Assembly (NCBI GenBank): GCA_023819145.1 | Contig: JAMWCW010000001.1 | Span: 66,400-130,399, forward strand | Source: Candidatus Omnitrophota bacterium | GTDB lineage: Bacteria > Omnitrophota > Gorgyraeia > DTHP01 | Direction: 5' to 3' | DNA length: 64,000 nucleotides | Shown here: positions 1 to 35,495 of the stretch, piece by piece | Position numbering within the stretch: position 1 is the first letter of the stretch | How the letters are laid out: each line of letters begins with the position of its first letter | Position numbers and translations under genes: made by a program | Notes under the pieces: model-generated | The model's input: the letters and a program-made list of their open reading frames with translations, nothing else | Told to the model about the DNA's origin: nothing | The model's database searches: none

Positions 1-289
1 ATTAAGAAACCCGATGAAGTCTGGGAGTATGTATTTAACTGGAGTAAAGCGCGGGGCAAAATAACCCTTCAAGATAACCTTACGATGGGTCTTCCTTAGC
101 AATTCTTTCTTGTGAATTTTCTGTTGTTCCAGCCAGCACACATCCTTGACGATAGCCGATAATTGTGGTATCTTTAAAGAGGAAGCAATTGCAAGAATAA
201 AAATCTTGAATTGTTTTGTAAAAGTATACCCTGTTTGGGCGATTTTAAGCCGGTTATAAAATCTTTTTCTTAAAAATGGCTTAGCGGTG

Positions 290-1210: not shown

Positions 1211-1361
1211 AATCTAAAGGGAATTATTCTCTAAAAAAACATCTTAAATAGATTATGGCGTAGTTGCAGGGTTTTACTTAAAAAAAGTCTTCCCGACTAA
1301 CTGAGTTGTTGATAGTTCGTCTTTCTTAATTTTTGTTAAGATTAGAGGGGGGATTCTAACT

Positions 1362-2210: not shown

Positions 2211-2260
2211 TTTTCTTCCCTGAGAAAATATAACACCTAATTTACCTAGCGTCAAGGGAC

Positions 2261-2292
2261 ACTTGACGATTTGCAAAAAGCGTGTTATATTT
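2261..2292 (+). promoter_or_regulatory. sigma70-like promoter (cccTTGACG -17- TATATT), copy 1 of a duplicated 29-bp promoter
   Basis: TTGACG 2264-2269, 17-nt spacer, TATATT 2287-2292; identical 29-mer CTTGACGATTTGCAAAAAGCGTGTTATAT recurs at 3913-3943; lies inside the over-long ORF 2271-3785, arguing that ORF's first 43 codons are not translated. Confidence 0.5.
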
Positions 2293-2399
2293 TAAACGAA
2301 ACTAAAATTCCTTTATCTAAGGATGCGGTAACTAATCTTTCCTTTAAGCTTAAATTTAGAACCCCTATAATTAAATACATAAAGAAGGTGTTTATACAA

Positions 2400-3785: not shown

Positions 3786-3905
3786 TAATGAGTCGTAATC
3801 CGTAAACCGTAATCGGTAATTTGTAATAAAAAATAACGAACTCAACGAAATAACCAACTAAACGAAAATAACGAAATTAACGAACACAACGAACAAAATA
3901 TCATC
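3786..3905. repeat. composite microsatellite: 5 tandem 7-mers (CCGTAAT-like) followed by about 7 AACGAA units at 8-9 nt period
   Basis: tcgtaat ccgtaaa ccgtaat cggtaat ttgtaat, then aacgaact caacgaaa taaccaac taaacgaa aataacgaa attaacgaa cacaacgaa read directly; a related element occurs at 39095-39180. Confidence 0.6.
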
Positions 3906-3912
3906 AACGCAG

Positions 3913-3944
3913 CCCTTGACGATTTGCAAAAAGCGTGTTATATC
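3913..3944 (+). promoter_or_regulatory. sigma70-like promoter, copy 2 of the duplicated 29-bp promoter
   Basis: TTGACG 3916-3921, 17-nt spacer, TATATC 3939-3944; identical to the 2261 copy over 29 nt; precedes the GAPDH-like gene with a ~245-nt leader. Confidence 0.5.
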
Positions 3945-4187
3945 TTAATGTAGAAGAGAGGTACTTTATAAAACTTAAATTTCAATATCATAAATTAACT
4001 TTCTAGAATAAAAAGATGAGAGATTTTAATTATTTCTTTCTATTGGAAAGTGAAAAAATAGTTTCTCATTCTAAAGGGTATCAAGCCCTGATTAAAGCAT
4101 TGGAGCATGGTTTTGAAGGATTAGACAAGGAAATAGCCAAGAGGTTAATAAATTCCTATTTATATTTAAATGAAAGGAGGGAATGTA

Positions 4188-6611: not shown

Positions 6612-6644
6612 AAAATAAGATTTATTCTCGCAAAAGGAGGAATT

Positions 6645-8798
6645 ATGCGGATAAGCAATTTAGTAAGAGTTATTTTTATTTTCTTTTCTGTTCAATTTTC
6701 TCTCTTTTCTGGTGAACTCCGGAATGGAGTAATCTTAATTTCTCGTCGGGCTAAGAATCAAGAATTTTTAATAGTGTCTCCCTTTCAAAAATTACTCTCT
6801 CTTTTAGGAAACGGATTACAAACTGGTCTTAACTTTGATGAAGGGATAGAACTTTTTCGCCAGATAGAGAGATTGCGCTTGTCTGTGGAGGAAACAGAAG
6901 ATTTTTATTCTTTTATAGCGAATAATCTTGTTGATTTTTTGGTAGTTTCAGAAAGGTCAGGAATTAGAATTGACCTTCTTGATATTCGCGACCTTTTCTC
7001 GGCAGCACAGAACTATGCTTTGGGGATAAGAAGAGATGAGTTGGGATTAAATAGGGGAGGAAGGGCTCTTTTAAATAAGATGTTAAGTGTTAAAGATATA
7101 AAAATCATTGGTGAACAGCTTTTAGAAGCACTTGACTCCTCTTTTAACAATGGCAGGATTGATAAAGCTAATTACCTGAAATATAGAGAGCGTCTTGAAA
7201 TTATTACTCTGATGGCTGGACTCTGGGCAACTTCACCAGTGAGTTCTAAGAGTATGCTTAGAGCTTTAGAAGGAGGAAATACCGCCATTATGGCCGCAAA
7301 TACCCAGATGTCGGTAAGTATTCCCGGACTTATGCTTGCTTCTTTAGAATTTGGAGCTCCCCTTATGTTTGAATCGGCAATGAGTGAAGTCAACCTGCAA
7401 GACCCAAATGACCCTGCGAAAATAGCTATTGGTTATATCGGTAGAAATCCCCAGGAATTTGCGGAAGTAGTAAGATACTATGCCTTTCTTTTAGGTTACG
7501 ACCTGCCTTATGCCATTCATGCTGACCACACCACAGTAAGTAAAGATACAGCGGAGGCAATTGACTATGCTAAAAGACTTAATCAAGCACAATTATCTGC
7601 AGGATATACCTCTTTTGCTATTGATCCTTCATCTCTTCCCGCAGTGAGAGAAGATACCCAGTTAAAAACGCTCAATGCCATGGAGGTGGAAGAGTTCTTG
7701 AGGCTTGGTTTTGATGAAAGTTTAGCAAAAACTTTAGCCGCGCGAGAATTTAAAAAATTAAAAGAACTCTCTTCTATTGAAGGAATAGACGAGAGAAAGA
7801 TCAATATTCTGATGGACTATATTGAGTCACAGATTCTAGTTGCAGTTTTGAATAAAATGGGGTATGAAGATTTGATGAGCATTCCACGTATGCCTGGAAC
7901 TATTGCCCGTGCCATTGTAGAGAACGGTCCGTTTACTTCCTTGGAAGAGCTAAAAGAAATTGATGGGCTGGGTGATGATGATATTTTCTATATTGAGGGA
8001 ATAGACAATGCGGTTCTTTTGTTTGATTATTTAAAGGCTTACTTAGATTTAAAGCGGATTATTGAGATAAATATAGAATTAGCAAAATTTATTCCTGAAG
8101 AGTTTGGTTTAGAGGTGGAAGTTGGTCATATTGGAAGAGTTGATCCACTGACGGGAGAGGCGGTGATGACTACTCCTTTAGAAGCGGTAGTTTTGATTGA
8201 AGCATTACAAAGATTTGGGATAAAACCACAGCTTTTGGCGGTAAATAATGGAACAAAACACGGAATTGTCTTCATTGGGGGTAAAGAGGTTCCTACGACT
8301 GTAGATGTAAAAAGAACCGATGAAATAGCGAGCGCTATAAGACCTTTAGGAGTTTCCCTTGCTCAGCACGGAACTACTGGTACGCCTTTTGAGGTTATAA
8401 AAGATCAACTTGCGGGAAATATCCTTAAAGCCAATGTAGGAACCGAGTGGCGGAGAACTGTTTTAAGAAGCATGCCTTTGGATTTATTCTATAGAATGGT
8501 AGAGTGGACAGTGGAAGAAGAAAAAAGGAAAGCTCCAGAGAAATTTTCTGGACTTCTTCCGGTAAGAAGTTATACACGTGAACAACTGCTAAGTTCAGAG
8601 TGTCCTTACTATGCTTTAATTATTGATCCTATAAAACGGGCAATAGGAGTTTTTAGAGCTGAAATTGATAATATTTCTGGTGAGGATTTGGATTTAATTG
8701 TAGAAACAACCCGCGAAGTAGCAAGAGAGTATTTTACTGCTTTTAATGCTCTAGAGAAAGTTTGGAAGATTGTAAAGTATTTGGGTTGGGGATGGTGA
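6645..8798 (+). CDS. class II fructose-bisphosphate/tagatose-bisphosphate aldolase-like protein with inserted HhH motif and RR leader
   Basis: Zn-ligand-bearing motifs AIHADHTT, EVEVGHIG, AVNNGTKHGIVF, LAQHGTTGTP...ANVGTEW align to class II FBA (HTDH, ELG, GNVHG, FHGGSG); ComEA-like helix-hairpin-helix IPRMPGTIARAIVENGPFTSLEELKEIDGLGD inserted; leader VIFIFFSVQFSLFSG...ILISRRAKNQ; RBS aaaaggagg. Confidence 0.55.
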   Translation: MRISNLVRVIFIFFSVQFSLFSGELRNGVILISRRAKNQEFLIVSPFQKLLSLLGNGLQTGLNFDEGIELFRQIERLRLSVEETEDFYSFIANNLVDFLVVSERSGIRIDLLDIRDLFSAAQNYALGIRRDELGLNRGGRALLNKMLSVKDIKIIGEQLLEALDSSFNNGRIDKANYLKYRERLEIITLMAGLWATSPVSSKSMLRALEGGNTAIMAANTQMSVSIPGLMLASLEFGAPLMFESAMSEVNLQDPNDPAKIAIGYIGRNPQEFAEVVRYYAFLLGYDLPYAIHADHTTVSKDTAEAIDYAKRLNQAQLSAGYTSFAIDPSSLPAVREDTQLKTLNAMEVEEFLRLGFDESLAKTLAAREFKKLKELSSIEGIDERKINILMDYIESQILVAVLNKMGYEDLMSIPRMPGTIARAIVENGPFTSLEELKEIDGLGDDDIFYIEGIDNAVLLFDYLKAYLDLKRIIEINIELAKFIPEEFGLEVEVGHIGRVDPLTGEAVMTTPLEAVVLIEALQRFGIKPQLLAVNNGTKHGIVFIGGKEVPTTVDVKRTDEIASAIRPLGVSLAQHGTTGTPFEVIKDQLAGNILKANVGTEWRRTVLRSMPLDLFYRMVEWTVEEEKRKAPEKFSGLLPVRSYTREQLLSSECPYYALIIDPIKRAIGVFRAEIDNISGEDLDLIVETTREVAREYFTAFNALEKVWKIVKYLGWGW

Positions 8799-8868
8799 GA
8801 TCTTATAATTCTTCTTAGTAATTGAAGTTGTCTAAAAATTATTTGCTACTAAAGGAGGGATTGTAGAG

Positions 8869-10407
8869 ATGAGAAAAATATTTTTAGTTCTTTCTTTTTG
8901 TTTATTGTTTTTTCTATTTTGTCCTTTAAATTATAATTCTCAAGAATATTTTTCTTTCCGTAGAATTCATCGTAATCTTTTAATCACTGACCCACAACTT
9001 TTAGATGAGGCATATTTGTTGAATATCCTCCATATTGGGGGTGGATTGGGTTCCATTGTAGTCGATGCTCGTAGCGGAGAGCATATTGCGAGATTGAGTA
9101 TCTCTGGGAAAAGAATTATTAGTCGTGATGGTTTTAGCGTGCAGGATATTTTAAAAGGGATAGAAGAAGGGCGATTCGTTACTGTTACTCATCAAGAATT
9201 AGTTCAGAGGGCTCTTGAACATAGAGAGAATTGTGTGCTTGTCTTTACAGGTGGTGGAGATTCTGCGGGTATAAATGCAGTAATCAGTTCTGCAGTCCAA
9301 GGATTAAAGAAATTGAAACCAGAAATGACTGTTTTGGGTTTAAGAAACGCAGGAGCCAGTCTGGTGGTTTCTCCGGAAGAATTTCCCGAACATCTTGTTC
9401 TGATAGATGAATTATACGCTGAAGATGTTGCGGAACAGGGCAGTACTTTTTTGGGCTCTTCAAGGTATAATCCTTTTAAGAAAGCAGAAGATATGGCAAA
9501 GACTCTGGAAAACATAAAGGGTTTTGGAGCGTGGATTTCTACAGGAGGAGATGATAATCTTAAGGTTGCCCAGAGATTATCCCAGGAAAATCCGGAAATG
9601 GTGGTTTTGGCTACTGCCAAAACCATCGATGGTGATGTGATGGTTAATGGAAGAGGAGTGCAATGTTTGGGATTTGATTCAGCAGCGAAGATGTATCGGG
9701 ACGAAATTTATTCTATTGCCCAGAGTGCCAAAGCTCATGGAGAGAAAGAACAACCGCTGGTAATTGTGGTTGAGGTGTTTGGAAGGGATTCCGGAAGGTT
9801 GGCTTTTGAATCGGCGCGCCCCGATGACTTTTCCGGATTGAATGCGGAGGAAATTCGGAGACAAGTTGACCTTGCAGGAACGATAATGATCGTTGTTCCT
9901 GAGGAGAAACATGCTGACGGGACTCAAGCGACCATTGATGAATTAGTAAAAAGGGCAGAGGAAATTATTGCCCGCGAAAATGCAGTGGTAATAGTTGTTG
10001 CTGAAGGTTATCGGCCAGGAGATATGCCGGATATTGTAAAAACTTCTTCTAAAACAGATGCCTACGGACACGTTCAACTTGCCGGCATTGGTTCCGCGCT
10101 TGTTCCGGTTTTAGAAAAAAGAATTCCTAAAGCAAAAGTAAGAACCTCTCTTCTTAACTATGAAGGAAGGGGAACGCTTCCCAGCGAATACGATGTTACA
10201 TTGGGTTATAAGATTGGTTGGGAAATGGCTGAACTAATAGCCCAAGGAGTGACGGGTGGAAGGTTTGTAGGATATTTCAATGAAATGGATGCCCGTTTTG
10301 AACTGCCGGTGGTGCTGGAATTGGTGAATATCTCTAACCAGAATACCTTAGAGCTTTATCCCCGTCAAATATTAGAGAGGAATAGGGTTTTGGTGCTTGA
10401 TAGGTAA
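8869..10407 (+). CDS. pfk: 6-phosphofructokinase (ATP- or PPi-dependent) with RR leader
   Basis: VLVFTGGGDSAGINAVI, GSTFLGSSRYNPF, WISTGGDDNLKVAQRL, AKTIDGDV, PLVIVVEVFGRDSGRLAFESA match PfkA motifs closely; leader LVLSFCLLFFLFCP...YFSFRRIHRN; RBS aaggaggg. Confidence 0.8.
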   Translation: MRKIFLVLSFCLLFFLFCPLNYNSQEYFSFRRIHRNLLITDPQLLDEAYLLNILHIGGGLGSIVVDARSGEHIARLSISGKRIISRDGFSVQDILKGIEEGRFVTVTHQELVQRALEHRENCVLVFTGGGDSAGINAVISSAVQGLKKLKPEMTVLGLRNAGASLVVSPEEFPEHLVLIDELYAEDVAEQGSTFLGSSRYNPFKKAEDMAKTLENIKGFGAWISTGGDDNLKVAQRLSQENPEMVVLATAKTIDGDVMVNGRGVQCLGFDSAAKMYRDEIYSIAQSAKAHGEKEQPLVIVVEVFGRDSGRLAFESARPDDFSGLNAEEIRRQVDLAGTIMIVVPEEKHADGTQATIDELVKRAEEIIARENAVVIVVAEGYRPGDMPDIVKTSSKTDAYGHVQLAGIGSALVPVLEKRIPKAKVRTSLLNYEGRGTLPSEYDVTLGYKIGWEMAELIAQGVTGGRFVGYFNEMDARFELPVVLELVNISNQNTLELYPRQILERNRVLVLDR

Positions 10408-10461
10408 AGAGATAACTTATTTTATTTGGCATTTTTAAAACAAATAGGTTTCTGAGTATTT

Positions 10462-11253
10462 GTGCGATATTTAATAATAAGAAAAATAGTAATTATTTTA
10501 TTTTTTTTGGCTCTTTCTCAGACAATAGTATTTTCTCCGGTGTATGCTCGCAGAGTGAAGTGGTTTGGGGGTGAGTTATCACTTCTTCAAGAAAATAATT
10601 TTTTTGTAGGGCTGGAAGATAGTTTGAAAGAGTTTGTTATTAAATTCGAGGATGCCAGAGTAATAAAATCTATCTCTCAGCCAGAGCCATTAGAAGGGGA
10701 TGCCCCTTTTGATTCCGGAGAAAAGATAGTTACCTATAAAATTGAGGTTTTGACAGATAAAGGGGTTAGCAGTTTAGTAGTGAAATTGGTAAGTAGCAGA
10801 GAAGCAAAAAATTTCTTAACTGCTTCTTTAAGGGGTGTTTCTCCAGGTCCAGCGATTTTTGTAGAACAGGGGTGGGAGAACAGAAATGGCGTTAGCGAAG
10901 GTTATTTAATCTATCGGTTCTTTGAAGGAGTGAAGTTAAGCGAAATTTGTAATCAGGAACAGGCAATTGATATCCTAAAGAATAATCTTTGGATTATTGA
11001 AGAATTAGGTATTAAACTTGCGAATTTAAAGAAAGCAGGGGTAAAATATAGAGATTTTTTATATTATAATACGCTTATTGATTTAGAAAAGAGAGCTCTT
11101 GTGATTGTTGATTACGGTGATAGGCATTGCGCTGATCCCTTTATTCAGGTAAGAGATTGGTGGTTGCCTTTGATGTTCAATACTGAACCCGAGATATTAG
11201 AGAAAGTTATTAGTTTATTTGTAGAAGTTTATCAGAGAGAATTAAATAATTAA
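10462..11253 (+). CDS. protein-kinase-like fold protein (candidate secreted kinase) with RR leader
   Basis: VVKLV (VAIK-like Lys), KYRDFLYYNTLID (HRDxxxxN catalytic loop), VIVDYGD (DFG-like); leader IVIILFFLALSQTIVFSPVYARRVKW; GTG start. Confidence 0.35.
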   Translation: MRYLIIRKIVIILFFLALSQTIVFSPVYARRVKWFGGELSLLQENNFFVGLEDSLKEFVIKFEDARVIKSISQPEPLEGDAPFDSGEKIVTYKIEVLTDKGVSSLVVKLVSSREAKNFLTASLRGVSPGPAIFVEQGWENRNGVSEGYLIYRFFEGVKLSEICNQEQAIDILKNNLWIIEELGIKLANLKKAGVKYRDFLYYNTLIDLEKRALVIVDYGDRHCADPFIQVRDWWLPLMFNTEPEILEKVISLFVEVYQRELNN

Positions 11254-11325
11254 TGAGATTTGCTACTCTTAAAGAAATTATCTTGCGGCGAGAAATGATC
11301 ACAATTTTAAGGGGGAGGAAGTGAT

Positions 11326-13551
11326 ATGGGTATGAGGAAAATATTCATATTTTGTTTTATTCTCATAAAATTTGCCATCTTTTCATTTTCTTTTAATTTT
11401 TCCTCTTTAGAAATTATTGCGCATCGCAGAACTAAAATTTCTCCTTTAGTAGCAAATCATGAGTCTGTAAGGAAAGTTTTAGTAGATATTTTCTACAGAG
11501 CAGCAGGATTTCAAGGGGCTTTGCGCAGCGGAACAGCACAAGAACGGCGAGATATTTTAAACCAACCTGAGGTAAAGCGCGCTGTTTCTTTGCTCCAATA
11601 TGGTTTGAGTTTAGGAAGTACAACTTTAAGAAATCAAGTGGCTTATCTTGCTGAACGTTTAGGGATAAGCGCGAATCCCGCAGTAAATATTGGAATCTAT
11701 CAGGGAGAAGCCGAAATTTTTGATATTCTGGGAAATATCTTTATGCCTGAGGGAGATGGTTTAGTCTTTTATCAAAAAGGAACTGATAATCCCGAAACTC
11801 TTTTTAAGCCTTTTTTGGCTCGCTATGGAGCCAAAATATTTGAATTTGACCCTTACTTCGTAGAGCGCAATTCTACTCCCTCCTATTCTACAGAATTAAG
11901 CGGTTTTGAAGCGCTGATTTCTTTAGCTATTCAAGAGGGACAAAATCCGCGTTTTATCTATCTTAGCGGAAAAGGTTTAACCGAAGCGCAAGCAAGAAGA
12001 ATTTATGCTTTGGCAGAAACTTACAATCTTATAATTATTGAGGATATTACCAACGCAAACCCTACAGATTATCTACTTTCTGCAAACGATTCTCAAGGGA
12101 GAGTAATTTCCATCGGAAATTTTGACAAGTATTTAGGGGCTGCAAATCCTTTAAGTTATGCCATTGCGGGAGAAGAGATTATGCGTCTTATGGAAATTGC
12201 TATTGGCGGGATAAGTCTTCATCCCAATGCTTTTATTCAGCCGATAGTCTCGGAAATTTTAGCCCAAAACGGTATACCTTTCTCGGTAAATGTTTCCTAT
12301 AAACCCATCACTCTTTCTGAGAGTGTAAAAGCAATTCTTGCTTCAACAGGTGCAGACCAGCGCTTAAAACCCTCCATCATTAGAGAAATTCTTAAAGGGG
12401 CAGTTTCGGATATGGTGCGTATGGGAGGAGGGGTTCCTGCCGAGGAGTTCTTCCCTTATGTGGAAATTGCCCAGATTATAGAAAATATGAGCCCTGAGGA
12501 ATGGGAAAAGGTAATGGCTGGGGACCCGGCGATTAATTTAGAGTTGCGCAGTGTTTTTTGCCGGTGGCTTGAAGAAAGAGGAATAAAAGCTGACCCCCGT
12601 CAGGTTTTGGTAACCAATGGGAGCCAGCAGGGTTTGGATTTATTGGGAAGATGGGTGGGAAAAGAAGGAGTTGTTTTTGCCGAATCTCCTACCTATGTAG
12701 GAATGATTACGGGAGTTGCTCCTTACGGAGGCCTTCCTTATGGTAGAAATATTCGGCATTGGGATTTACGCACACTCACTGGATTAGAGAATTTAGAGAA
12801 AGAAATTGAAGAGAACTATCGAGGTAAAAAAATTGTTTTATATGTTACACCAAACTTTGGTAATCCTCCTTCAGGGAATATGTGGACGATTAGCGAAAGA
12901 AGGAATCTTCTGGCTTTTGCCCAGAGGATGCGCTTAAAGGGATACGATTTGCATATTGTAGAAGATGATCCTTATGGAGAACTAAATTATACTGGTCAAA
13001 GAATTGTAGATATCAAAGAGTTGGATACAAACGGAACAGTAATTTATTTCAACTCCAATTCCAAAGTCTTTTCTCCGGGAATGCGTGTGGGGTACATTGT
13101 GGCTGATGAGAAAATAATTCATGAATTTGCTTCTCTTATGGATGAAGTAGGTTCTTTTGTTCCTACACTCCCCCAACTTATTATTACTAAGTTTATCGAG
13201 ACAGGAGCGATGGATAGACATATTGAATTTTTGATTGGTGAATATTCAAAACGTGCACGGGCAATGGAAGAAGCTTTAGAGGAATTTATGCCTGAAGGTG
13301 TAACCTGGACAAAACCTGAGGGAGGGTTATTTATTACTTTAACTGTTCCCTGGGATATAGATTTTATGGCCATGCTTGAGGAGGCCAAAAATTACGCGAT
13401 TCCCTTTAACTTTGTTCCGGGTATCGCCTTTAGTGTGGATGGCTCAAGTGCTCATAAAATTCGTCTTTGCTTTTCCACAGAGTCTGAAGAAAGAATAACC
13501 TTAGGTATTAAGGCTTTTGCGGAGTTGATAAAAAAACACCTTGGCCAATAG
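11326..13551 (+). CDS. PLP-dependent aminotransferase (class I/II fold) with N-terminal degenerate aminotransferase-like domain and RR leader
   Basis: C-half: LVTNGSQQGLDLLG, NSNSKVFSPGMRVGYIV (SxSK...R PLP-lysine motif); N-half has similar architecture (IYLSGKG...IIIEDI, SIGNFDKYLGAANP) without the full motif; leader FIFCFILIKFAIFSFSFNFSS...IIAHRRTKIS. Confidence 0.5.
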   Translation: MGMRKIFIFCFILIKFAIFSFSFNFSSLEIIAHRRTKISPLVANHESVRKVLVDIFYRAAGFQGALRSGTAQERRDILNQPEVKRAVSLLQYGLSLGSTTLRNQVAYLAERLGISANPAVNIGIYQGEAEIFDILGNIFMPEGDGLVFYQKGTDNPETLFKPFLARYGAKIFEFDPYFVERNSTPSYSTELSGFEALISLAIQEGQNPRFIYLSGKGLTEAQARRIYALAETYNLIIIEDITNANPTDYLLSANDSQGRVISIGNFDKYLGAANPLSYAIAGEEIMRLMEIAIGGISLHPNAFIQPIVSEILAQNGIPFSVNVSYKPITLSESVKAILASTGADQRLKPSIIREILKGAVSDMVRMGGGVPAEEFFPYVEIAQIIENMSPEEWEKVMAGDPAINLELRSVFCRWLEERGIKADPRQVLVTNGSQQGLDLLGRWVGKEGVVFAESPTYVGMITGVAPYGGLPYGRNIRHWDLRTLTGLENLEKEIEENYRGKKIVLYVTPNFGNPPSGNMWTISERRNLLAFAQRMRLKGYDLHIVEDDPYGELNYTGQRIVDIKELDTNGTVIYFNSNSKVFSPGMRVGYIVADEKIIHEFASLMDEVGSFVPTLPQLIITKFIETGAMDRHIEFLIGEYSKRARAMEEALEEFMPEGVTWTKPEGGLFITLTVPWDIDFMAMLEEAKNYAIPFNFVPGIAFSVDGSSAHKIRLCFSTESEERITLGIKAFAELIKKHLGQ

Positions 13552-13608
13552 ATTTTTTTGTAATATTTATATCTCCCTTTGGTTATAGATAATAGGGGGG
13601 CGAGAAAG

Positions 13609-14769
13609 ATGAAGAAATACTTAAGAATTAGAGGGATATTTATTTTAGTAGTATTTGTAGTATTTTTATTTACGCTTTTGATTCCTGTAAAACATTCCTT
13701 GGCTTATCCCAGGAGTTATCCTTATTTAGTTTCTAATTCATTACCAGCTTTTTCCGCGCGAGGGTTTAATGAAGCGCTCTTAGCGCGAGTTTTGCGCGAG
13801 ATTATCATTATCTATAAATTCTTGGCTCAAATCGAAAGGGTTCTTAATGAAAGAGGAGAAAATGATTTTCCATCTTTAGGTAGGGTCATCGGAGACAGAC
13901 CTCAGGAGAGAGAAAATTCCCAAAATACTCCCCCCAAAAGAAGTAATTTAAGGGAAGAACCTGCGGGTAACCGTCATCTAGACCCAGAAAATCCTTCGGC
14001 AAAACTACCAGAAGGGTCATCTTCGTCACCTGCTGGTTCTCTAGGAAAGATAAAGATTGCGATTATTGATATTGACTCTAAGCACGCCGCAGAAGTAAAG
14101 GCGGTAATGGAAGAGACAATTCGGCGTAAGAATCCCGGGGCAAAAGTAGAAATTCGTACCATTATTCTTCCTGGCAAATGGCAAAGGGATGGTTCTAAAG
14201 CGGTGGCTACCAGTGATATTTTAGACGCTTTTGCAGAAGCCAAAGCTTGGGGCGCAAAGGTAATCAATATGAGTATTGGTGCACAAGGAGGTGTAGACGG
14301 TATAGTGCTTAGTGCCTTACGCGACCTTTCTGAAAGTGGCATTCTGGTAGTAGCGGCATCAGGTAATGAAGGTAGTTATGATGCTTGGGGGCAAGCTGGC
14401 CGATATGTCTTATCAGTGGGGGTAAGAGGTGCACCTTATTCCAATACCGCTGATTTATATGTCGATTGGGGAGAGCTTCCACCTGGATTAGAAGGCACAT
14501 CTTTTGCTGCTCCGATTATTGCTGCGGAAGCGGCTTTAGCCTGGTTAGAAAACCCTTCCCTTAACTTGGCAAGTTTGCCTTCTCAATTAGGTTCACGGGA
14601 CACAGTTTATGCCCGGAGTAATCCTCCGCAAAGAAGTTCGCAGGGGTTTCACACTTCGGCAATAGAGTTTGTAAGGCCACCTGTTGTTTTTTATACGCCG
14701 GTGGAAGAAATGCCTTTTTACGAACAGAGTTTTTATTCGCCTGTTGGCTGTTTTCCGTCTTTTTGGTAA
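13609..14769 (+). CDS. subtilisin-like serine peptidase (S8 family), signal-anchored, no canonical HGTH motif seen
   Basis: AIIDIDS (Asp box), VINMSIGA, VAASGNEGS (oxyanion Asn), GTSFAAPIIAA (catalytic Ser box); start at ATG 13609 after RBS agggggg; N-term LRIRGIFILVVFVVFLFTLLIP; no RR motif after the hydrophobic segment. Confidence 0.55.
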   Translation: MKKYLRIRGIFILVVFVVFLFTLLIPVKHSLAYPRSYPYLVSNSLPAFSARGFNEALLARVLREIIIIYKFLAQIERVLNERGENDFPSLGRVIGDRPQERENSQNTPPKRSNLREEPAGNRHLDPENPSAKLPEGSSSSPAGSLGKIKIAIIDIDSKHAAEVKAVMEETIRRKNPGAKVEIRTIILPGKWQRDGSKAVATSDILDAFAEAKAWGAKVINMSIGAQGGVDGIVLSALRDLSESGILVVAASGNEGSYDAWGQAGRYVLSVGVRGAPYSNTADLYVDWGELPPGLEGTSFAAPIIAAEAALAWLENPSLNLASLPSQLGSRDTVYARSNPPQRSSQGFHTSAIEFVRPPVVFYTPVEEMPFYEQSFYSPVGCFPSFW

Positions 14770-14876
14770 TTTTTGTTTGTTTTCTTCTAAATAAAGGGGA
14801 CACTTACTACCGACTCTTCATTGGTTGTAAGAAAGTAAAAGATATTAAACTTGAATTCCGAGGAGGTATTATATAA

Positions 14877-16064
14877 ATGAAAAATAGTAGAGGAAAGATT
14901 TATGTTATGTTTTTGGGTTTGTTATTTTTCTTTCTTAACTCATTATTATATTTAGACTTATCTGCGGGATGCTCTTTCCGGCGAATCAAAACTCAACCTG
15001 CCAAAGAATCTGCGCTGGTGCTTTTTTTCCACGAATTAGGTAGAGAAGATATTTTTTTAGTGGGAGGAAAAGGGGCAAATTTGGGAGAACTTTCGCATAT
15101 TGCCGGGATAAGCGTTCCCGAGGGGTTTGTAGTTACCACCACCGCTTTTCAAAAATTTTTAGATGCCAACCCTGGATTACAAGATAAAATTATCAGGATT
15201 ATAAATAGTATAGATTGGGATACCCCTTCCAGTATAAACTCTGCTGCGGAAAAGATAAAAGAAGCGGTTTTGCGTGCGAACATGCCGCGAGAGATTATTG
15301 AGATGATTAAAGCAGGTTATGGCCATTTAGAAGAGATCTCCGGAATAAAGGATGTGCCCTGTGCTGTAAGAAGTTCGGGAGTTGCTGAGGATTCTCCTAA
15401 CTTTTCTTGGGCAGGTCAATTCCGCACTGAATTAAATCAGAGGGGAATATATCAGGTTTTAGAGGCGGTTAAATTAATCTGGGCAGAGTTGTATAATCCT
15501 GATGCCCTTACCTATGGACATCAGAATGGTATCGACCCGCGCAAATTTTCTATGGGAGTGGTAATTCAGCGGATGATAAATTCAGAGAAATCAGGAGTGG
15601 CTTTTGGACTGGAGTCCGATACAGGTTTTCGTGCCAATCCCGGAGGAATGGAAGGAGTTTTTTATATTGAAGGGGTTTATGGTTTAGGTGAAGGGATGGT
15701 GCAAAATATTCAAGAACCTGATGGATTTTTGGTAGTAAAGATGCCTAATGGTGAATTTAAAATTATTGAACGCATTTTCGGTTCCAAAAGAGAACAGATA
15801 GTTTATCGGTCTGGAATGAGTGGGACAGAGAAAACTTCGGTTCCCGAAGAATGGCGTCAGAGATGGGTTTTTTCAGAAGCAGAGGTGTTAGAGATTGCTC
15901 GTGCAGTTTTTGCCTTAAATAGCCACTATAATCATCCCCAGGATGTAGAATTTGCCTGGGAAGGAGGAAAACTATACATATTACAATCACGCAATGAGAC
16001 AGTTCATGCAGATAAACCAGTAGATTTAATTGAATGGAGAAAGTTTAGAATTAACCTTAAATGA
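14877..16064 (+). CDS. PEP synthase/pyruvate phosphate dikinase N-terminal nucleotide-binding (ATP-grasp) module, separate ORF, with RR leader
   Basis: LVGGKGANLGELSHIAGISVPEGFVVTTTAF matches PEP-utilising enzyme N-terminal signature; RBS gaggagg; leader VMFLGLLFFFLNSLLYLDLSAGCSFRRIKTQP. Confidence 0.75.
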   Translation: MKNSRGKIYVMFLGLLFFFLNSLLYLDLSAGCSFRRIKTQPAKESALVLFFHELGREDIFLVGGKGANLGELSHIAGISVPEGFVVTTTAFQKFLDANPGLQDKIIRIINSIDWDTPSSINSAAEKIKEAVLRANMPREIIEMIKAGYGHLEEISGIKDVPCAVRSSGVAEDSPNFSWAGQFRTELNQRGIYQVLEAVKLIWAELYNPDALTYGHQNGIDPRKFSMGVVIQRMINSEKSGVAFGLESDTGFRANPGGMEGVFYIEGVYGLGEGMVQNIQEPDGFLVVKMPNGEFKIIERIFGSKREQIVYRSGMSGTEKTSVPEEWRQRWVFSEAEVLEIARAVFALNSHYNHPQDVEFAWEGGKLYILQSRNETVHADKPVDLIEWRKFRINLK

Positions 16065-16083
16065 AAAAAGGGGGAGATAAATA

Positions 16084-18471
16084 ATGAAGTGGTTACATGT
16101 TAAAATTTTTTGGAGTATTGCCTTTTTAATTATTGCCAGCCTACTTTATGTTGATAATCTTTTTATGTTTTCTTCTTTAGATTTTATTACAAGAAGAGTA
16201 TTAACTCCTTCTTATACAGATTCTCCTTCGGTTGAGGTTCCCTCCGGTTCTCCTAAAATAATTGCCCGTGGAGAAGGGGTAGGTGCTAAAGGAGCGGGGG
16301 TAGGACGAGTGGTTATCATTGATGAAAATAGTTCCATCCCTATTCGTGAGCAGGCAATGCGTGTGCGCGAAGGAGATGTACTTGTTGCTTATCGCACCGA
16401 TCCTTCTTTGGTGGATGCCATGCGCCGAGCAGGTTTGGTGATTACTGAAATTGGAGGGAAAAATTCTCATGCTGCGATTGTCGCTAGAGAATTTAATTTA
16501 AATGCGGTTATTGGTGTGCCCAATGCTACGCGTATTTTTGCTCAAGGGCAGGTAGTTACTGTTGATGCTGAGCATGGAGTCATTTATGCTGGAGCTTTGC
16601 CGCTTGAAGAAGATAGTGTTTCCTATCGCGTGAGTGAACTTCCGTCTACGAGCCCTGTAAAGATAGGGATACTTTCCTTTGATACTGCTCGGGTGAGAGC
16701 GATGTTTCCTTTGGGTTTGTATTCTGATTTTTACGGTATAGGGCTGATGCGTGCAGAGTTTGCTTTACAAAATATTGGCATCCATCCGTTAGCAATATTG
16801 GATTTTGATAGAGGTACGCTTAGAGATGCAAGGCTACAAACAGAAATTACGCAAAAAATCAAAGGCTATGCGAGTGCGCGAGACTATTACATCTCAAAAC
16901 TTTCTTCTGCAATATTTTCCAATTCGCTTATTCTACATGAGGGGCAAAAGGTTATTTACCGCACCACTGATTTTAAAACCAACGAATATGAAGATATGTT
17001 AGGAGGGGATGTTTACGAGCATAAAGAGCCCAACCCCATGATGGGCAATCGCGGTTTACAGCGAATGATTAGTCCTGAATACCGGGAAGCATTTGATATG
17101 GAACTCGAAGCATTTTTACTTGCCTGGAAAGATAATCCGGGAAAGATTTCTATCATGGTTCCTATGGTACGCACTCCCCAAGACCTTCTGACTTTTCGTC
17201 AAATTCTTGAGGGAAAAATAAGGAGTATGGGGCTCTCGGGTATGCCTGAGGTAGTAATGATGTATGAATTGCCCGCGAATGTTTTTCAGATAGAGGAATT
17301 TATTCACGCCGGTATAAATGGTATTTCCATTGGTTCAAATGACCTGACACAATTTATTCTGGCAGTAGACAGGGACAGTGGTTTATTTAGAGAAGGAGGT
17401 AGAGAAGAATATGATGCCGTAAATAGAGCAGTATTGCGTGCTATCGGCATCGGTATAACTTCTTCTAAAGCCCGCGGTGTAAAAACAGGTATTTGTGGGC
17501 AAGCGCCATCAGACCATCCAGATGTTTATCCTGCAATTCTTACTGCTTTAGGAATAGATTCTATAAGTGTTACTCCCGATGTGTTTCATAAAGTGGTAGA
17601 AGCAGTAGCCCAAGCACAACAAAATCCTTCTTTTGGGATGAGATACCTTTCGGGTTTAGATTTATTTTTAGGCTACGATACCCAGACTAATCCCAAACGA
17701 GAATTAAAGAAGATAATTAGTTCTGATGATATACTTCGGAGTATTGGCATTCATCCTTTAGCCTTACTTGCCTTTGACCGGGGAAGTAGTTTATTGAGTG
17801 ATACGGCGATAAGTAGGCAGATTGTTTCTTTTGCCGGAGAAGAAACTGCAGAACGGGCTTACTTTGACCGTGTATATAGGGCGGTAAAGAATGCTTTACT
17901 TATGGATGGAGAGGTAGTTTATAGAACAGGAAGTTTGCTCAGTACCGATTATAAAACGCTTGTGGGAGGAGATATTTTTGAAAAAGAAGAAGCAAATCCC
18001 TTATTGGGTGCGTTTGGAATGTACCGCCTGCTCAGATATGGTTCAGAAGATGGCGCTTTGAGTATGCGTGATATTTTTAACATAGAGATGGATGCAGTTT
18101 TAAAAGCTGTGCGGGATACCGGTAAAGTTATTCATTTAGAGTTAGATATGGTGCGCACTTTTGGAGAATTACAGGAGGCAGTTTCTGTGATTAATGAGGC
18201 AATACGCCGTACAGGGATTTCTCCAGATAAGGTGAAAATTGGTCTAAATGTTTCTACTCCGGCAAATGTTCTGCTTATTTCTGATTTTATTAACCAAGGG
18301 AGATTAAGTTTTGTGAGTATCGACGAAAAAAGGTTAGCCTGTTATCTTTTGGGGGTGGATTCCTTGAGTATGGTTAGCCCCGAGGCTATTGAACGAGCCC
18401 TATATATACCTCGTCAACTGGTTTATACAGCATTAGCTCAAAAGGGAATCCCTTTAGTTAACTCCCCCTAA
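16084..18471 (+). CDS. PEP synthase/PPDK phosphohistidine swivel domain plus PEP/pyruvate-binding TIM barrel, followed by a degenerate second TIM-barrel copy, with RR leader
   Basis: GGKNSHAAIVAREFNLNAVIGV (mobile His domain), GLMRAEF, MVPMVRTPQD, SIGSNDLTQF (TIM-barrel motifs); second copy GIHPLALLAFDRG, LDMVRTFGEL, LSFVSIDEKRL lacks NDLTQ; leader IAFLIIASLLYVDNLFMFSS...FITRRVLTP. Confidence 0.75.
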   Translation: MKWLHVKIFWSIAFLIIASLLYVDNLFMFSSLDFITRRVLTPSYTDSPSVEVPSGSPKIIARGEGVGAKGAGVGRVVIIDENSSIPIREQAMRVREGDVLVAYRTDPSLVDAMRRAGLVITEIGGKNSHAAIVAREFNLNAVIGVPNATRIFAQGQVVTVDAEHGVIYAGALPLEEDSVSYRVSELPSTSPVKIGILSFDTARVRAMFPLGLYSDFYGIGLMRAEFALQNIGIHPLAILDFDRGTLRDARLQTEITQKIKGYASARDYYISKLSSAIFSNSLILHEGQKVIYRTTDFKTNEYEDMLGGDVYEHKEPNPMMGNRGLQRMISPEYREAFDMELEAFLLAWKDNPGKISIMVPMVRTPQDLLTFRQILEGKIRSMGLSGMPEVVMMYELPANVFQIEEFIHAGINGISIGSNDLTQFILAVDRDSGLFREGGREEYDAVNRAVLRAIGIGITSSKARGVKTGICGQAPSDHPDVYPAILTALGIDSISVTPDVFHKVVEAVAQAQQNPSFGMRYLSGLDLFLGYDTQTNPKRELKKIISSDDILRSIGIHPLALLAFDRGSSLLSDTAISRQIVSFAGEETAERAYFDRVYRAVKNALLMDGEVVYRTGSLLSTDYKTLVGGDIFEKEEANPLLGAFGMYRLLRYGSEDGALSMRDIFNIEMDAVLKAVRDTGKVIHLELDMVRTFGELQEAVSVINEAIRRTGISPDKVKIGLNVSTPANVLLISDFINQGRLSFVSIDEKRLACYLLGVDSLSMVSPEAIERALYIPRQLVYTALAQKGIPLVNSP

Positions 18472-18483
18472 CCGGGAAAAACC

Positions 18484-18582
18484 GACCCCACCTCGTAGGT
18501 GTCCTTTTCACTGTATTGTAAGTTGTTTTTATATGGATACTTATGTGGGACGATTTTGGCCACCTACGAGGTGGGCACGGTT
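18484..18582. repeat. REP/BIME-like element: two inverted hairpin units (CCACCTCGTAGGTG / CACCTACGAGGTGGG) about 55 nt apart
   Basis: ccccacctcgtaggtgtcc 18486-18504 and ggccacctacgaggtgggcacggtt 18558-18582 are mutual reverse complements; the same units recur at 29475-29573 and 30283-30380 flanking a RAYT gene. Confidence 0.6.
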
Positions 18583-18948
18583 AGTTTTGGTTTGGGTGTG
18601 GGTTGAGGAAAGTAGATTTTGGGTTGAGGAGTTAGATTAAGGAAAAATAAAAAACAGAATAGAATGTTTTGAGGTGTAAAGAAAGTTTACCCCCACAATG
18701 ATAGAAGATGTCAGTGTAAGTAGATATTTATCAGTAACTTATGGATAGATGCTCTTAGAATGTAATTTTAATTTACTTTCTTATTTGCCTTATGAAAAAA
18801 GGAGGAAGATAAATTTTCTTGTTTTATAGTCGGAAAAATCTGTCTTTGGTGATTATCTAATATTCTGGCATAAATTTTGCTTACTCTAGTAACAGAAAAA
18901 ATGTCAGAATTAAAAATTGAAATAAGAAAATTTTTACCATCTCTGCCA

Positions 18949-18977
18949 TTGACGATAAGAGAAAGATGTGATATAAT
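18949..18977 (+). promoter_or_regulatory. strong sigma70-like promoter TTGACG -17- TGaTATAAT (extended -10) for the giant YD-repeat gene
   Basis: TTGACG 18949-18954, extended -10 TGATATAAT 18969-18977; 25 nt upstream of ATG 19002. Confidence 0.5.
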
Positions 18978-19001
18978 TTATATAGAGAATAATAATAAAT
19001 A

Positions 19002-22000
19002 ATGAATAAAATAATAAAAATGATAAATATGGAAAAGAAGAGAAAATATATTCTTATCTTTTTGGGACTATTTTTGCTTATTAGTGCCTATGTAGAGGCA
19101 AAGGTGCGTACTCAAGTAATTCGCAATAGCCCCGTCCCGGAAAGAAATGTGGGAATTATTCCTGAGGCGCGTTCGGTAGAAGACTGGGCACGGGTGAGAA
19201 CTCAGGTTATAAAAGAAACAGAAAGGAGAAACCGTCAAATAGAGACCAGCCAGAATCTTCCCGATAAAATGGAAGATAGCCGGAGAGAGACAGAAGAGGA
19301 ACGCCTCAAATCCGCTTACAAAATAGAAAAAGATGCTCGGGAGATGAAACAAAAAATAGAGCAGGCTTCTCCCAATGAGGTGGTAGGAGAAAATCCCGAT
19401 GGGACAAAATGGTATCAATACTCAGGAAGATTTGACATCTTCAAGAACTGGATAAAAAACAAACTCAAAGAACTTGGCCTCTTGGATAAATGGAAGGGTG
19501 AAAGTTTTGAGGAATTAGTTCAAAAATATGGTAAAACCAATTTTGACCTCACCTTCAACAAAAAATCTTGGTCTTATTTTGGTAAGCGCTCCTCGACTCT
19601 GCAAACCACAGAATTTCAATTTAGTTTAACCAATCCCGAAGATAATTTTGAAAAATATATTCAGACGCGCTCGCGTCAATTAATCTGGGATAGCGCCAAT
19701 AATCGCGAGGCAGAAATTGTGCAACATACTATAACCGATGAGATAGAATGGGCAGGTAAGTTCTATGGCACGCCGGGAAAAACCGAACAAGGAAGGCAGA
19801 TGCTTTCTTCTCGCCAGAGAACTTGGGATGAGACCAGGGGAACTTATTCTGAGGTAAACCAGAGAAATGTCTATGAAGGGAATTTCCATATGCCCATTAA
19901 GACCATCCGCAAGGTCTTTGAATCGGGCTACGATACTAAAGGCAATTACTATGAACGCCGATACGAGATGACCCGTGAGAATATTGAATGGGCGTGGGTT
20001 GTTTCAAGTGACCCAATTTCTGGCGGAAGTTATGAAACAAAGAGCTTTGACCAGACGATGATTGATTATTCCACGCCTGATAAAAAGACAATTTCCCACC
20101 ATGAGTTTACTTATACTGATGATGGAGTTCCGGAAAGTCAATTGATTGTTAGCCGAGAAGTTGGTTTAGGGCTAAATCATATTTCAGTAAGTTTAGAAAG
20201 ATATCTTGACTACTACAAAGATGGTTCTTTGCGCCAAGGACTGAGTCTTGATCTCACTGGTGATTTTCCTGACGTATATACCGCCGTAAAAGAAGGAAGA
20301 ACTTTACAGAATTTAATCAATAATAAAGAAACAAAGTCGCAAATCGAAGCACAGTTGGGACGCAGTTTAAACTTGAACAATCCTCAAGATTTAAAAATCT
20401 ATACCGCTTATCTGAGGGAAGGATTGGGGGAAACAGCAAGAAAAATCAGTTTGAGTTTTGCCGAGAAGAAACACAATGACAAAGCATTCCTTGCCTGGGA
20501 AAAAGAGACAGTTGCCATTGAAGGAAAAGATGAAAATGGGAGCCTGATTAGTTCTAGCAGTGAAATAGAAAAAACTTATACCCAGTTCTTACCCTTTGGT
20601 CAACCCACAGAGATTGAGCAACTGATAAGAAGCGAAGCCACACCAAATGTAGAAACAAAATTAAAGATTTCTTTAAAATACAACAAGTATTGTCAGGTAA
20701 CTGAACAGAGAACCGAAACGCGAGAAACAAGCCTTGATGGCAAACTTAATAAACACACGATAAGCATAAAAGATAAAATTGTTTACAATGGTTTAGGACA
20801 GGAAATTTCCTATCGTGAGCGAGAAGAAGAATATGATATAGATGGAAAGCGCATTGGCAATCGTGAAACTTTAGTAAAAAATATTACCTATAATGAAGAT
20901 GGCTTGCAGACCGGTTACGAGATGCAGAGCATAACCAGAGGAATTGATACTCATGATGGAAGTATTTTTGAGATAATTACTGAAACAAAAGTGCGCGATA
21001 TCCGATATAATGAATTGGATATGCGTATATCCTGGAAGGAGATAAGTATAGATTTAAGCAGAAGCCCGGGATTAATTAGTGAGAGAATGTATCAGGTAAA
21101 GGCAATAGATGAATTTGGAAGAATTACGGAGATAGATATAAAAGAACACACTTATGGCACTGCTTCCGATGGAACCTCTCTAAATACTGAACGCACCATT
21201 AACCGCAAGATAAAATACAACTCTTTAGGTCAGGAAGAAGAGGCAATTGAGGAGGTAATTGAGAAGGCAAAGACCACTATCTCAACCATTAAATATGCCT
21301 ATGACCAGTATGGGAGAATTTCGCGCGAAGAAAGAAAAGTGCATGTAACGGGGAAAGATGGAGATAGCGAATTGGACTATACTTATACTCTATTGCGCTA
21401 TGGATTTGAGTACAATGATGCAGGACTTCTACAGAGATATAAGGCTAAAATCCGGAATGAATCTACAGCCGATATAGAAATAACTCAGGAGGTAGAGATT
21501 GGCTATGACAGTCTGGGAAGAGTAGATTATCAGAAGACTCAAGTCTGGGAAGATACGCGAAGCGGAGATAAGGCCTTACACAAATACACACTTACCGTAA
21601 GGGAAAACATTACCTATAATGAATTAGGATTAGAGACAGCTTATACTGAAACAGAGGAGGAATTTGATGAAGATGGAAAACGCATTGGCAATCGTAAGGT
21701 TAAGGTAAGTAACATTACTTATAATGAAGATGGTTTGCAGACTGGTTATGACATGGCGGTAATAGTAGAAGGGACTGATACCCATGACGGAAGTAGTTTT
21801 GAAACCTTTACCGAGATTAAAGTGCGCGATATTCGTTACAACAATTTAGGCATCCGCATTAGTTGGAGAGAAACCACCATAGATACAAGTAGGAGTCCAG
21901 GATTAACTACCGAAAGAAAATACGCGGTTACAGAGATAGATAGGTTTGGTAGACCTATAGAGCTTATAATCAATGAGCATGCTTATGGCTCTGCTTCTGA

Positions 22001-30439: not shown

Positions 30440-30838
30440 ATGAAAAAAAGAATTCTGTTTTTGGGGATGGTTGGAGTATTATTGAGTTTTGTTTCTTGTG
30501 GAAAGGCAAAAGAGGAAGTTTACGAATCAGAGACAAAGGCAAGCGAAGAGGTGAAAATAGCTATGGTAGAGGAGGGAGAAATGGCCCAGAAACCTGAACT
30601 AAAATATGTGGAAGGAGAGCTTTTAGTAAAGTTTAAACCCGAAGTTTCTGCAGAAGAGATAATTACGATCCTCAAAGACGAATATCAATGCGAGATTATT
30701 GATATTATAAAAGGATTAGATGTTTACAGGATAAAAATGCCCAAAGGAAAAACTGTCCCCGAGATGGTGGAGTTATTGAGTAAAGATGAACGGGTGAAAT
30801 ACGCCGAACCTAACTATATCTATCGCTTACAGATGTAG
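30440..30838 (+). CDS. small lipoprotein with subtilase-propeptide (inhibitor I9)-like domain
   Basis: Signal MKKRILFLGMVGVLLSFVSC (lipobox-like); LLVKFKPEVSAEEI...VYRIKMPKG...VKYAEPNY resembles peptidase inhibitor I9 / subtilisin pro-domain ending in YAEPNY; ORF track starts at GTG 30419. Confidence 0.4.
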   Translation: MKKRILFLGMVGVLLSFVSCGKAKEEVYESETKASEEVKIAMVEEGEMAQKPELKYVEGELLVKFKPEVSAEEIITILKDEYQCEIIDIIKGLDVYRIKMPKGKTVPEMVELLSKDERVKYAEPNYIYRLQM

Positions 30839-30847
30839 AGGTAAAAC

Positions 30848-31612: not shown

Positions 31613-31922
31613 ATACTGTATCAAACCATATCAAGAAACTTTCTCGCTTATTTATTCCCAAATCTCACGAGAAAAGATAAACCGTATCAGAGCCGTGATA
31701 CGGTATTTAATTTCCTAAATTACCGAGCCACTCTCCATAAAGCAAGGGTATCAACTGTATCATAATTCTTTAAAAACCCTTGCCAAAATCCCTGCCGAAA
31801 AAGATAAGAAAAAAATATAACCAAAATGATTTTTTTTCTTGACAAAAGTTCTTAATTATGATAAGGTTAAAACCCTGATACTGTTTGATATAGTTAAACC
31901 CCCTTTAAAACAGGAGGGAGAA

Positions 31923-34109: not shown

Positions 34110-34142
34110 GTAAAATCAAAAATTAGCAAAAGGAGGAGAAAA

Positions 34143-35411: not shown

Positions 35412-35492
35412 TATTTTTGGTTAAATAGTTAAATTGGTTAGATGGGTAAATAGTTAAAAGGTTAAATAGTCAATTAGTTGATTTAATTTGCG
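35412..35492. repeat. tandem ~16-bp repeat GGTTAAATAGTTAAAN x about 4
   Basis: ttggttaaatagttaaattggttagatgggtaaatagttaaaaggttaaatagtcaattagttga read directly between the MFP stop and the RND start. Confidence 0.5.
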
Positions 35493-35495
35493 AAG

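Follow-up and report, generated by a model that had tools for sequence, protein, structure and literature searches.

Specialised S8 peptidases encoded beside proteins with a shared leader are known from several leader-processing systems, including LanP (lantibiotics), PatA/PatG (cyanobactins), QhpE (QhpC leader) and MycP (type VII secretion). We describe a similar arrangement in a 64,000-nt stretch (hereafter the window) of a metagenome-assembled genome of Candidatus Omnitrophota, in which the gene for a minimal S8 (subtilisin-family) peptidase at 13609-14769 lies in a block of genes for divergent glycolytic-type and other enzymes, whose N-termini carry a hydrophobic segment followed by an Arg-Arg pair (the RR leader). 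We tentatively propose that this minimal subtilase, the strongest candidate for processing the RR-leader proteins, cuts or matures them, a proposal that we rate as possible rather than probable. The presumed substrates differ from the small peptides and ESX substrates of the above systems in being full-size enzymes (260-1430 aa) that carry a membrane-targeting segment.

The window protein shares with the subtilisin family (MEROPS S8A/PF00082; BPN' and proteinase K) the fold, the Asp-His-Ser order and the Asn oxyanion residue, together with the boxes INMSxG, AAxGNEG and GTSxAxP and the distance from His to NMS (61 residues, against 59 in BPN'). In contrast, its Asp-His loop comprises 5 residues, compared with 32 in BPN', and its Asn-Ser segment ~45, compared with 66; the I9 prodomain is absent, the catalytic domain is only ~183 aa long, and a long disordered linker and an aromatic-ended tail are added. 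The initial annotation had called the enzyme kexin-like. It does resemble kexin/furin (MEROPS S8B) in its acidic catalytic domain and in a possible recognition of a basic motif: R-R-V-K of the leaders would fit the convertase pattern R-x-x-[K/R], in which the cut follows the final residue, and R-R by itself matches a dibasic site. As a statement of family membership, however, the kexin assignment did not hold, as the P-domain (PF01483), the prodomain and the DDG and HGTRCAG motifs are missing, no conserved acidic S1/S2/S4 residues were identified, and the Foldseek match to PCSK9 is no better than those to plain subtilisins. When residues 33-145 were inspected for a kexin prodomain, they consisted of one helix and disorder, with no conserved basic pair. 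By alignment, the conserved D156, E254 and D258 (7/8) are located near the expected subsites and the S1-floor position corresponds to Gly, as in BPN'.

In Apicomplexa, the PEXEL/TEXEL motif is a short Arg motif (RxLxE or RRLxx) a few tens of residues past the signal sequence, which many exported proteins of a host-dependent organism have in common and which is cut by one dedicated protease, plasmepsin V or ASP5, aspartic proteases of the eukaryotic endoplasmic reticulum/Golgi. The window would offer a functional analogy only, without homology, in that many proteins carry an Arg motif after a signal sequence and one candidate protease is encoded among them.

Within Omnitrophota, giant proteins termed Archaeovorins have been described in a preprint, in which many transmembrane (TM) helices are combined with glycolytic-type domains (FBPase, aldolase, PPDK) whose predicted location is extracellular (bioRxiv 10.1101/2023.11.21.568195). 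The authors propose that the N-terminal S8/C39 domains of the giants cleave them, and state that the cleavage points are unknown (bioRxiv 10.1101/2023.11.21.568195; see also 10.64898/2026.06.07.730766). Whereas the Archaeovorins fuse peptidase and enzymes, the window encodes the protease and each enzyme as separate genes and looks like an unfused counterpart of the Omnitrophota giants. No homology link was found, since neither the best 150 relatives of the S8 protein (longest 4101 aa) nor the relatives of the leader-bearing PFK include a giant protein. The searched passages of bioRxiv 10.1101/2023.11.21.568195, 10.64898/2026.06.07.730766 and PMC10066038 contain no mention of the RR leader or of the S8 subfamily.

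A reduced but apparently active subtilase

The window (GC content 34-43%) contains 38 main open reading frames (ORFs), all but one of which are on the + strand. The 386-aa product of 13609-14769 is 100% identical to the NCBI protein 'S8 family serine peptidase [Candidatus Omnitrophica bacterium]', and the PFK and prodomain proteins of the window are likewise 100% identical to NCBI proteins, all three on a 221-kb contig. The parts of the S8 protein, in alignments A1 (9 sequences) and A3 (8 sequences) and in an AlphaFold model built from a 9-sequence alignment, are as follows (a slash marks the predicted cut).

13609..14769, + strand: coding sequence of the minimal S8 (subtilisin-family) peptidase of 386 aa (NCBI match, Pfam, Foldseek)
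13609..13704, + strand: Sec-type signal peptide spanning residues 1-32, with MKKYLRIR ahead of a 17-residue hydrophobic core and SLA/Y behind it, read from the sequence
13771..13851, + strand: conserved helix, residues 55-81, NEALLARVLREIIIIYKFLAQIERVLN, with a conserved PAFSxRxIN before it (pLDDT ~70; conserved in A1)
13852..14043, + strand: disordered P/S/E-rich linker, residues 82-145 (pLDDT <50; length and sequence vary among homologs)
14044..14592, + strand: reduced S8 catalytic domain, residues 146-328, ~183 aa, compared with ~275 in subtilisin BPN' (pLDDT ~90; hhalign)
14068..14070, + strand: catalytic Asp154, the last residue of strand 148-154, with the invariant D156 two residues on (DID) (A1, A3; codon checked)
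14083..14085, + strand: catalytic His159 at the start of helix 157-174, 5 residues past Asp154 (invariant; alignment)
14365..14367, + strand: oxyanion-hole Asn253 (SGNEG), after strand 246-250 (invariant in A1 and A3; equals N155 of BPN' by hhalign)
14500..14502, + strand: catalytic Ser298 (GTSFAAP) at the start of helix 297-314 (invariant in both A1 and A3; equals S221 of BPN' by hhalign)
14593..14766, + strand: disordered C-terminal tail, residues 329-386, with a conserved aromatic end (...PSFW-COOH) (pLDDT ~30)

The Asp, Asn and Ser boxes quoted in the initial annotation are all present (AIIDID 150-156, VAASGNEG 248-255 and GTSFAAP 296-302), and the Pfam Peptidase_S8 model (PF00082) matched with 40 bits against a gathering cutoff of 21.8 (E 3.9e-10), over profile positions 89-175 only; no other Pfam model matched, so that neither a prodomain nor a P-domain was detected in the protein. 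In the PDB, sequence matches were obtained with sphericase and subtilisins. The NCBIfam matches were all sub-threshold, namely mycosin (TIGR03921, 37 vs 278.75), PatA (TIGR03895, 30.2 vs 421.05), QhpE (NF049966, 19.8 vs 165) and CspC.

D154, H159, N253 and S298 are invariant in both A1 and A3, including the more distant P0010 and P0011. The initial annotation had seen no obvious HGTH box and named SKHAAEV (157-163) as the closest stretch; the invariant H159 in this stretch indeed aligns with the His of HGTMVAG, HGTAVAG and HGNTCAG in the canonical S8 proteins P0007-9. Canonical relatives in A1/A3 have 30-75 residues more between Asp and His. Moreover, the distant relatives P0021 (DSTYSNHGT) and P0027 (D-x6-H) retain the short Asp-His loop together with a canonical NHG/GHG His box. 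Spacings were taken from A1/A3 and BPN' numbering, and a regex search for the nearest upstream Asp over the 150 best S8 representatives was discarded, as it gave many false calls.

In the model, residues 146-328 were predicted with pLDDT ~90, with the four catalytic residues at subtilisin-equivalent positions, and Foldseek matched the model to subtilisin BPN', proteinase K, PCSK9 and PatG with a probability of 1.00. Hhalign against residues 98-251 of BPN' gave a probability of 98.3% and paired NMSIG with NMSLG, SGNEG with AGNEG and GTSFAAP with GTSMASP; since it covered residues 98-251 only, Asp and His were equated from the MAFFT alignments that include P0007-9, P0021 and P0027. Because the catalytic residues are invariant, the modelled arrangement is that of subtilisin, and Foldseek and hhalign agree, the protein is apparently a reduced yet complete and active subtilase. 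The catalytic domains of the subfamily are acidic (pI 4.1-5.5). One member, P0010 (599 aa; L013 8867-10666), has an additional segment at residues ~140-210 that repeats the first ~70 residues of the catalytic domain in degenerate form, without the two Asp and the His (IIANDEKEFSA vs ILDIDPEHAA).

The N-terminus appears to be a classical Sec signal, with the cleavage site placed by the -3/-1 rule. The -1 residue is small in all nine relatives read (A in 7, S in 2), and Y comes next in 7. Because this signal and its -3/-1 site are conserved, the N-terminus, as read from sequence, is different in kind from those of the neighbouring proteins, and not merely through the absence of RR. At the other end of the protein, ten complete relatives were read, of which eight end in W (P0003, P0005, P0006, P0010, P0011 and P0027) or F (P0004 and P0014), the exceptions being P0002 (...VIWP) and P0021 (L). 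The C-terminal tail of most subfamily members also has a loose [FG]xGLGxxSPQ motif, and this aromatic-ended tail might be a tag for sorting or anchoring.

The surrounding enzymes share an RR leader

The S8 gene belongs to a co-directional cluster, with flanking gaps of 57 nt (to the aminotransferase gene) and 107 nt. The other block genes, whose products were identified by Pfam/NCBIfam, and the one RR-leader gene outside the block are as follows.

287-1210: methyltransferase, RR leader LSARRVK
1362-2276, - strand: unknown protein, RR leader
2271-3785: PGK, RR leader
4170-6611, + strand: GAPDH, RR leader; ~400 aa precede the GAPDH domains
6645-8798, + strand: class II FBP aldolase, RR leader; a helix-hairpin-helix domain inside
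8869-10407, + strand: PFK, RR leader
10462-11253, + strand: kinase-like unknown, RR leader
11326-13551, + strand: aminotransferase, RR leader
14877-16064 (PPDK_N) and 16084-18471 (PEP-utilizers), + strand: split pyruvate,phosphate dikinase (PPDK), leaders CSFRRIKT and FITRRVLT
60162-61886, + strand: asparaginase-like protein, outside the block, leader CFARRIPS

The + strand genes of the part upstream of the S8 gene, from 4170 to 13551, are separated by 33-72 nt. Promoter and terminator scans of 1-19500 gave counts no higher than those of shuffled sequences, and operon boundaries could not be called. The block enzymes are very divergent paralogs with NCBIfam scores far under the equivalog cutoffs (GAPDH 194 vs 367, aldolase 40 vs 343). 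Together they form a near-complete glycolytic/gluconeogenic paralog set with a leader, accompanied by methyltransferase, kinase-like, aminotransferase and asparaginase-like proteins.

We scanned the 38 main ORFs for the leader. As a result, RR was found 8-25 residues past an N-terminal hydrophobic segment in nine of the ten other block genes, and the tenth, the methyltransferase gene that opens the block at 287, also has RR, with a segment marginally below the hydrophobicity threshold. The motif was absent from ~12 other signal- or TM-bearing proteins of the window and recurred outside the block only in the asparaginase-like protein. The first 110 residues of the S8 protein contain no RR, and PAFSARGFN is found there instead; the earlier observation that it is the only block gene without the motif is thus borne out.

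A logo was then built from 42 leaders of the window and related loci, which were chosen by the presence of RR and aligned on it; the pair is invariant (42/42) and is located at residues 27-50. The preceding residue is L14/A9/F8/S6 (37/42), and the following positions are V17/I11/A5/T5 (+2) and K20/R12/H4 (+3). All occurrences of the motif are N-terminal, and one PFK ortholog outside the 42-leader set has RK in place of RR. The leaders are basic at their extreme N-terminus and neutral or acidic in the flank beside the hydrophobic core, from which the positive-inside rule predicts an N-in/C-out orientation of the leader proteins. A Tat signal was ruled out, as RR comes after the hydrophobic segment and not before it, with no further hydrophobic stretch behind. 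Signal peptidase I would accept the residue before RR in only 18 of the 42 leaders, and is unlikely as the only processing enzyme for the other 24, which have L, F, H or N at this position.

PPDK is a single ORF in L008 (44-3175), L005 (3945-7409) and L013 (3241-6795), and is encoded by two genes in the window. The second half in the window has its own complete TM segment and RR leader, exactly at the linker of the fused L008 ORF, whereas the fused PPDK has no internal leader at the domain junction (checked in L008). As judged from these sequences, the split supports, as a natural experiment, a per-polypeptide targeting role for the leader.

Conservation of the gene neighbourhood

The subfamily is small. 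Only five close homologs were found in 5.8e9 clusters, and an exhaustive profile search of 1.84e9 representatives gave five at E<1e-30 (P0004-6, P0010 and P0011), followed straight by generic S8 proteins. A subfamily pattern scan hit 2 of 185,579 species genomes with the patterns used, and a metagenome scan gave at least two true members among the 54 generic S8 matches listed. In total the subfamily comprises ~8 lineages, whose members are 36-59% identical. The leader-bearing PFK is rare as well (~9 clusters).

In 8/8 lineages, the S8 gene is located within or directly beside genes of the RR-leader block, which gives comparative support to the substrate-protease arrangement suggested in the initial annotation. 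The leader itself was verified in five lineages; in L007, L008 and L014 the N-terminus of the neighbour is lost at the contig end. The gene orders are as follows.

Window: aminotransferase, S8, PPDK_N
L004: aldolase, PFK, aminotransferase, 299-aa protein, S8
L001/2/3/15: 1069-aa and 270-aa RR proteins, S8
L005/6 and L013: FBPase_3, PPDK, HEAT protein, S8
L008: PPDK (N-terminus cut), S8
L007: aldolase (N-terminus cut), S8
L014: HEAT protein (N-terminus cut), S8

Since the immediate neighbour changes between lineages and the proteins are only 36-59% identical, the adjacency of S8 and RR genes has outlived rearrangements.

Proposed role of the subtilase and alternatives

Starting from the observed fold, catalytic residues, signal type, motif and conserved neighbourhood, we infer a topology of the substrates, the occurrence of leader cleavage and the position of the cut. 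The S8 peptidase would be exported by its ordinary cleavable Sec signal and end on the outer face of the cytoplasmic membrane, while the products of the surrounding genes, the divergent glycolytic/gluconeogenic paralogs and others, would be inserted N-in/C-out by their N-terminal hydrophobic segment. Most of the leader proteins seem to lack a signal peptidase I site, and all would expose phi-R-R-[V/I/A/T]-[K/R/H] 8-25 residues past the segment. The S8 peptidase would then cut at or next to the RR motif, thereby releasing or maturing the leader proteins; in this proposal it would not be a substrate itself, because it has no RR motif. Glycolytic enzymes outside the cytoplasm would be unusual. 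As for the position of the cut, cleavage after R-R, as first suggested, fits a dibasic site, but it does not stand as the single choice, being one of three equally open sites, namely before RR (after phi), after RR and after RRVK.

Several observations agree with this proposal. The residues L/A/F/S before RR (37/42) are the typical P1 set of subtilisins, and no peptidase-family match (Pfam/NCBIfam) was found among the other scanned block gene products. The acidic catalytic domains and the weak best NCBIfam likeness to the processing subtilases mycosin, PatA and QhpE point in the same direction, as does the distant relative P0027, which is encoded directly after signal peptidase I and shares the architecture of the window enzyme (signal peptide, helix, linker, an Asp-His spacing of 7 and a C-terminal W).

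Other observations weigh against it. In the alignment, a Gly stands at the S1 floor, as it does in BPN', and no kexin-type acidic S1/S2 signature was identified; moreover, if the enzymes faced the cytoplasm, the motif would be beyond the reach of an exported protease. Shared ancestry in one small clade may account for much of the synteny, and no S8 gene is present within 10 kb of the leader blocks L010 and L012. Around P0027, 21 kb contain no RR-leader genes, and a normal 340-aa GAPDH is encoded nearby; the S8 architecture is therefore not dependent on the leader system. Finally, in the window, L001, L004 and L014, a YD-like protein of 1336-1400 aa (723 aa in L004) follows the S8 gene, directly or after the PPDK genes.

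This last point leads to a different set of substrates. The enzyme could be a secreted or periplasmic protease of a clade island that acts on giant YD-repeat-like surface proteins, or on prey or host proteins, with RR serving as an uncut sorting, retention or topogenic signal. The two giants of the window, for which Pfam gave no significant domain, are as follows.

19002-23138: first giant secreted protein, 1378 aa, with YD/Rhs-like repeats seen by eye (Y-x-Y-D-x-x-G-R, YNxLG)
23396-29443: second giant secreted protein, 2015 aa, with 14 consecutive Gly

Homologs of the first giant are found downstream of the S8 gene in L001 (giants 11441-19865), L014 (3024-7034) and L004 (13795-15966), and the second giant is next in line both in the window and, as a homolog, in L001. 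The S1 region resembles that of ordinary subtilisins, and Omnitrophota are regarded as predators or host-dependent bacteria that make use of and rely on giant proteins at their surface (PMC10066038; bioRxiv 10.1101/2023.11.21.568195). However, the S8 gene of L005 is followed by a ParE toxin gene on the opposite strand (the contigs of L013 and L008 end after the S8 gene), whereas neighbours from the RR-leader block are present in every lineage, and the giants have ordinary signal peptides (VEA/K) and no common motif that would mark a cleavage site. We consider such substrates somewhat unlikely.

In our view it is distinctly unlikely that the enzyme serves the secretory pathway at large as a housekeeping protease, for the maturation or quality control of exported proteins and unrelated to the RR leader in particular, with its position in the block reflecting co-regulation of envelope and exported functions. 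P0027 speaks for it: this relative of the same architecture is encoded 105 nt downstream of signal peptidase I (Peptidase_S26) on two contigs (L071 9324-11188 and L072 872-2736) of a 31% GC organism, away from any RR-leader gene within the 21 kb. A housekeeping enzyme would nevertheless be expected to be widespread, yet ~8 lineages were found among 1.84e9 representatives and 2 among 185,579 species genomes, a rarity that mirrors that of the leader-bearing PFK.

A pseudo-protease or receptor, which the initial annotation had allowed for and which would bind without cutting in the way of CspC, could be read from the drastically shortened Asp-His region, the missing HGTH box and a weak match to the CspC non-triad model (NF040808, E 0.0064, 15 bits vs cutoff 675), but it is highly improbable, given four catalytic residues that are invariant over homologs of 36-59% identity plus P0010 and P0011 and occupy their subtilisin positions in a high-confidence model, and the canonical NHG/GHG box after a comparably short loop in P0021 and P0027.

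A stand-alone prodomain lipoprotein and its gene cluster

The initial annotation had also pointed to an I9-propeptide-like lipoprotein as a possible trans-acting inhibitor or chaperone of the S8 enzyme.

30440..30838, + strand: stand-alone S8-prodomain-like lipoprotein with a lipobox Cys (Fervidolysin_NPro-like, PF22148)

Its identity as a prodomain was confirmed by PF22148 (E 2.3e-16, 60.4 bits vs cutoff 21, profile positions 6-81 of 81) and the lipobox Cys. The family comprises 14 clusters, whose proteins all stand alone (85-143 aa). In an alignment of 13 of them, the lipobox Cys is conserved almost throughout and AEPN without exception, and in most AEPN leads into a C-terminal IYRLQx, which lies about where a cleaved prodomain would end. 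The gene is 15.7 kb from the S8 gene in the window (13.5-16.8 kb over two genomes), and the order S8, two giants, fn3 protein, Y1 transposase-like gene, prodomain, 242-aa protein and TolC/MFP/RND recurs in a second genome. In contrast to this macro-synteny in two genomes, which is the only link between the two, tblastn of the prodomain protein against all other S8 loci found no homolog within 10 kb. A role of the lipoprotein as a trans chaperone or inhibitor of the S8 enzyme is possible.

The prodomain gene heads a conserved cluster (window 30440-42295; L069 10001-20339) that encodes, after the prodomain protein, a protein of 242-254 aa, a TolC-like OEP, a membrane-fusion protein and a pair of RND pumps; through a C-terminal extension, the first pump (1176 aa) is longer than its neighbour. 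Directly upstream of the prodomain gene in both genomes is an IS200-like Y1 transposase gene (window 29623-30276; L069 9222-9938). Since this copy occupies the same position in two genomes although the proteins are only ~55-75% identical, it suggests a fixed, possibly domesticated gene rather than a recent insertion. The window further contains an ordinary-looking trehalose synthesis cluster at 44883-49025 (GT20 OtsA-like, trehalose phosphatase, DUF5752 and TreT-like).

Implications

With all catalytic residues retained, the catalytic domain described here is one of the most reduced among subtilases, and with Asp and His only 5 residues apart and no prodomain, it raises the question of how such an enzyme folds. 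The combination of a defined motif, phi-RR-[V/I]-[K/R], with one co-conserved protease turns the processing of the leader into a directly testable question.

On a wider scale, the locus could belong to an undescribed protein-sorting pathway of a small Omnitrophota clade, in which a set of enzymes is exported by a signal-anchor with phi-RR-[V/I]-[K/R] and the subtilase is the dedicated maturation protease, as a bacterial counterpart of PEXEL/TEXEL with plasmepsin V/ASP5. We regard this pathway as unlikely at present. If true, its exported set would consist of PGK, GAPDH, aldolase, PFK, PPDK, FBPase, enolase-linked genes and the methyltransferase, kinase-like, aminotransferase and asparaginase-like proteins, and a corresponding rule might determine where the giant multi-enzyme, multi-TM proteins of other Omnitrophota are cleaved. 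The Omnitrophota concerned here are ultra-small, probably host-dependent bacteria, in which this processing step has so far only been guessed at, and the minimal subtilase provides a concrete, cloneable candidate for the proteolytic processing of their membrane-targeted, apparently extracytoplasmic glycolytic-type enzymes.

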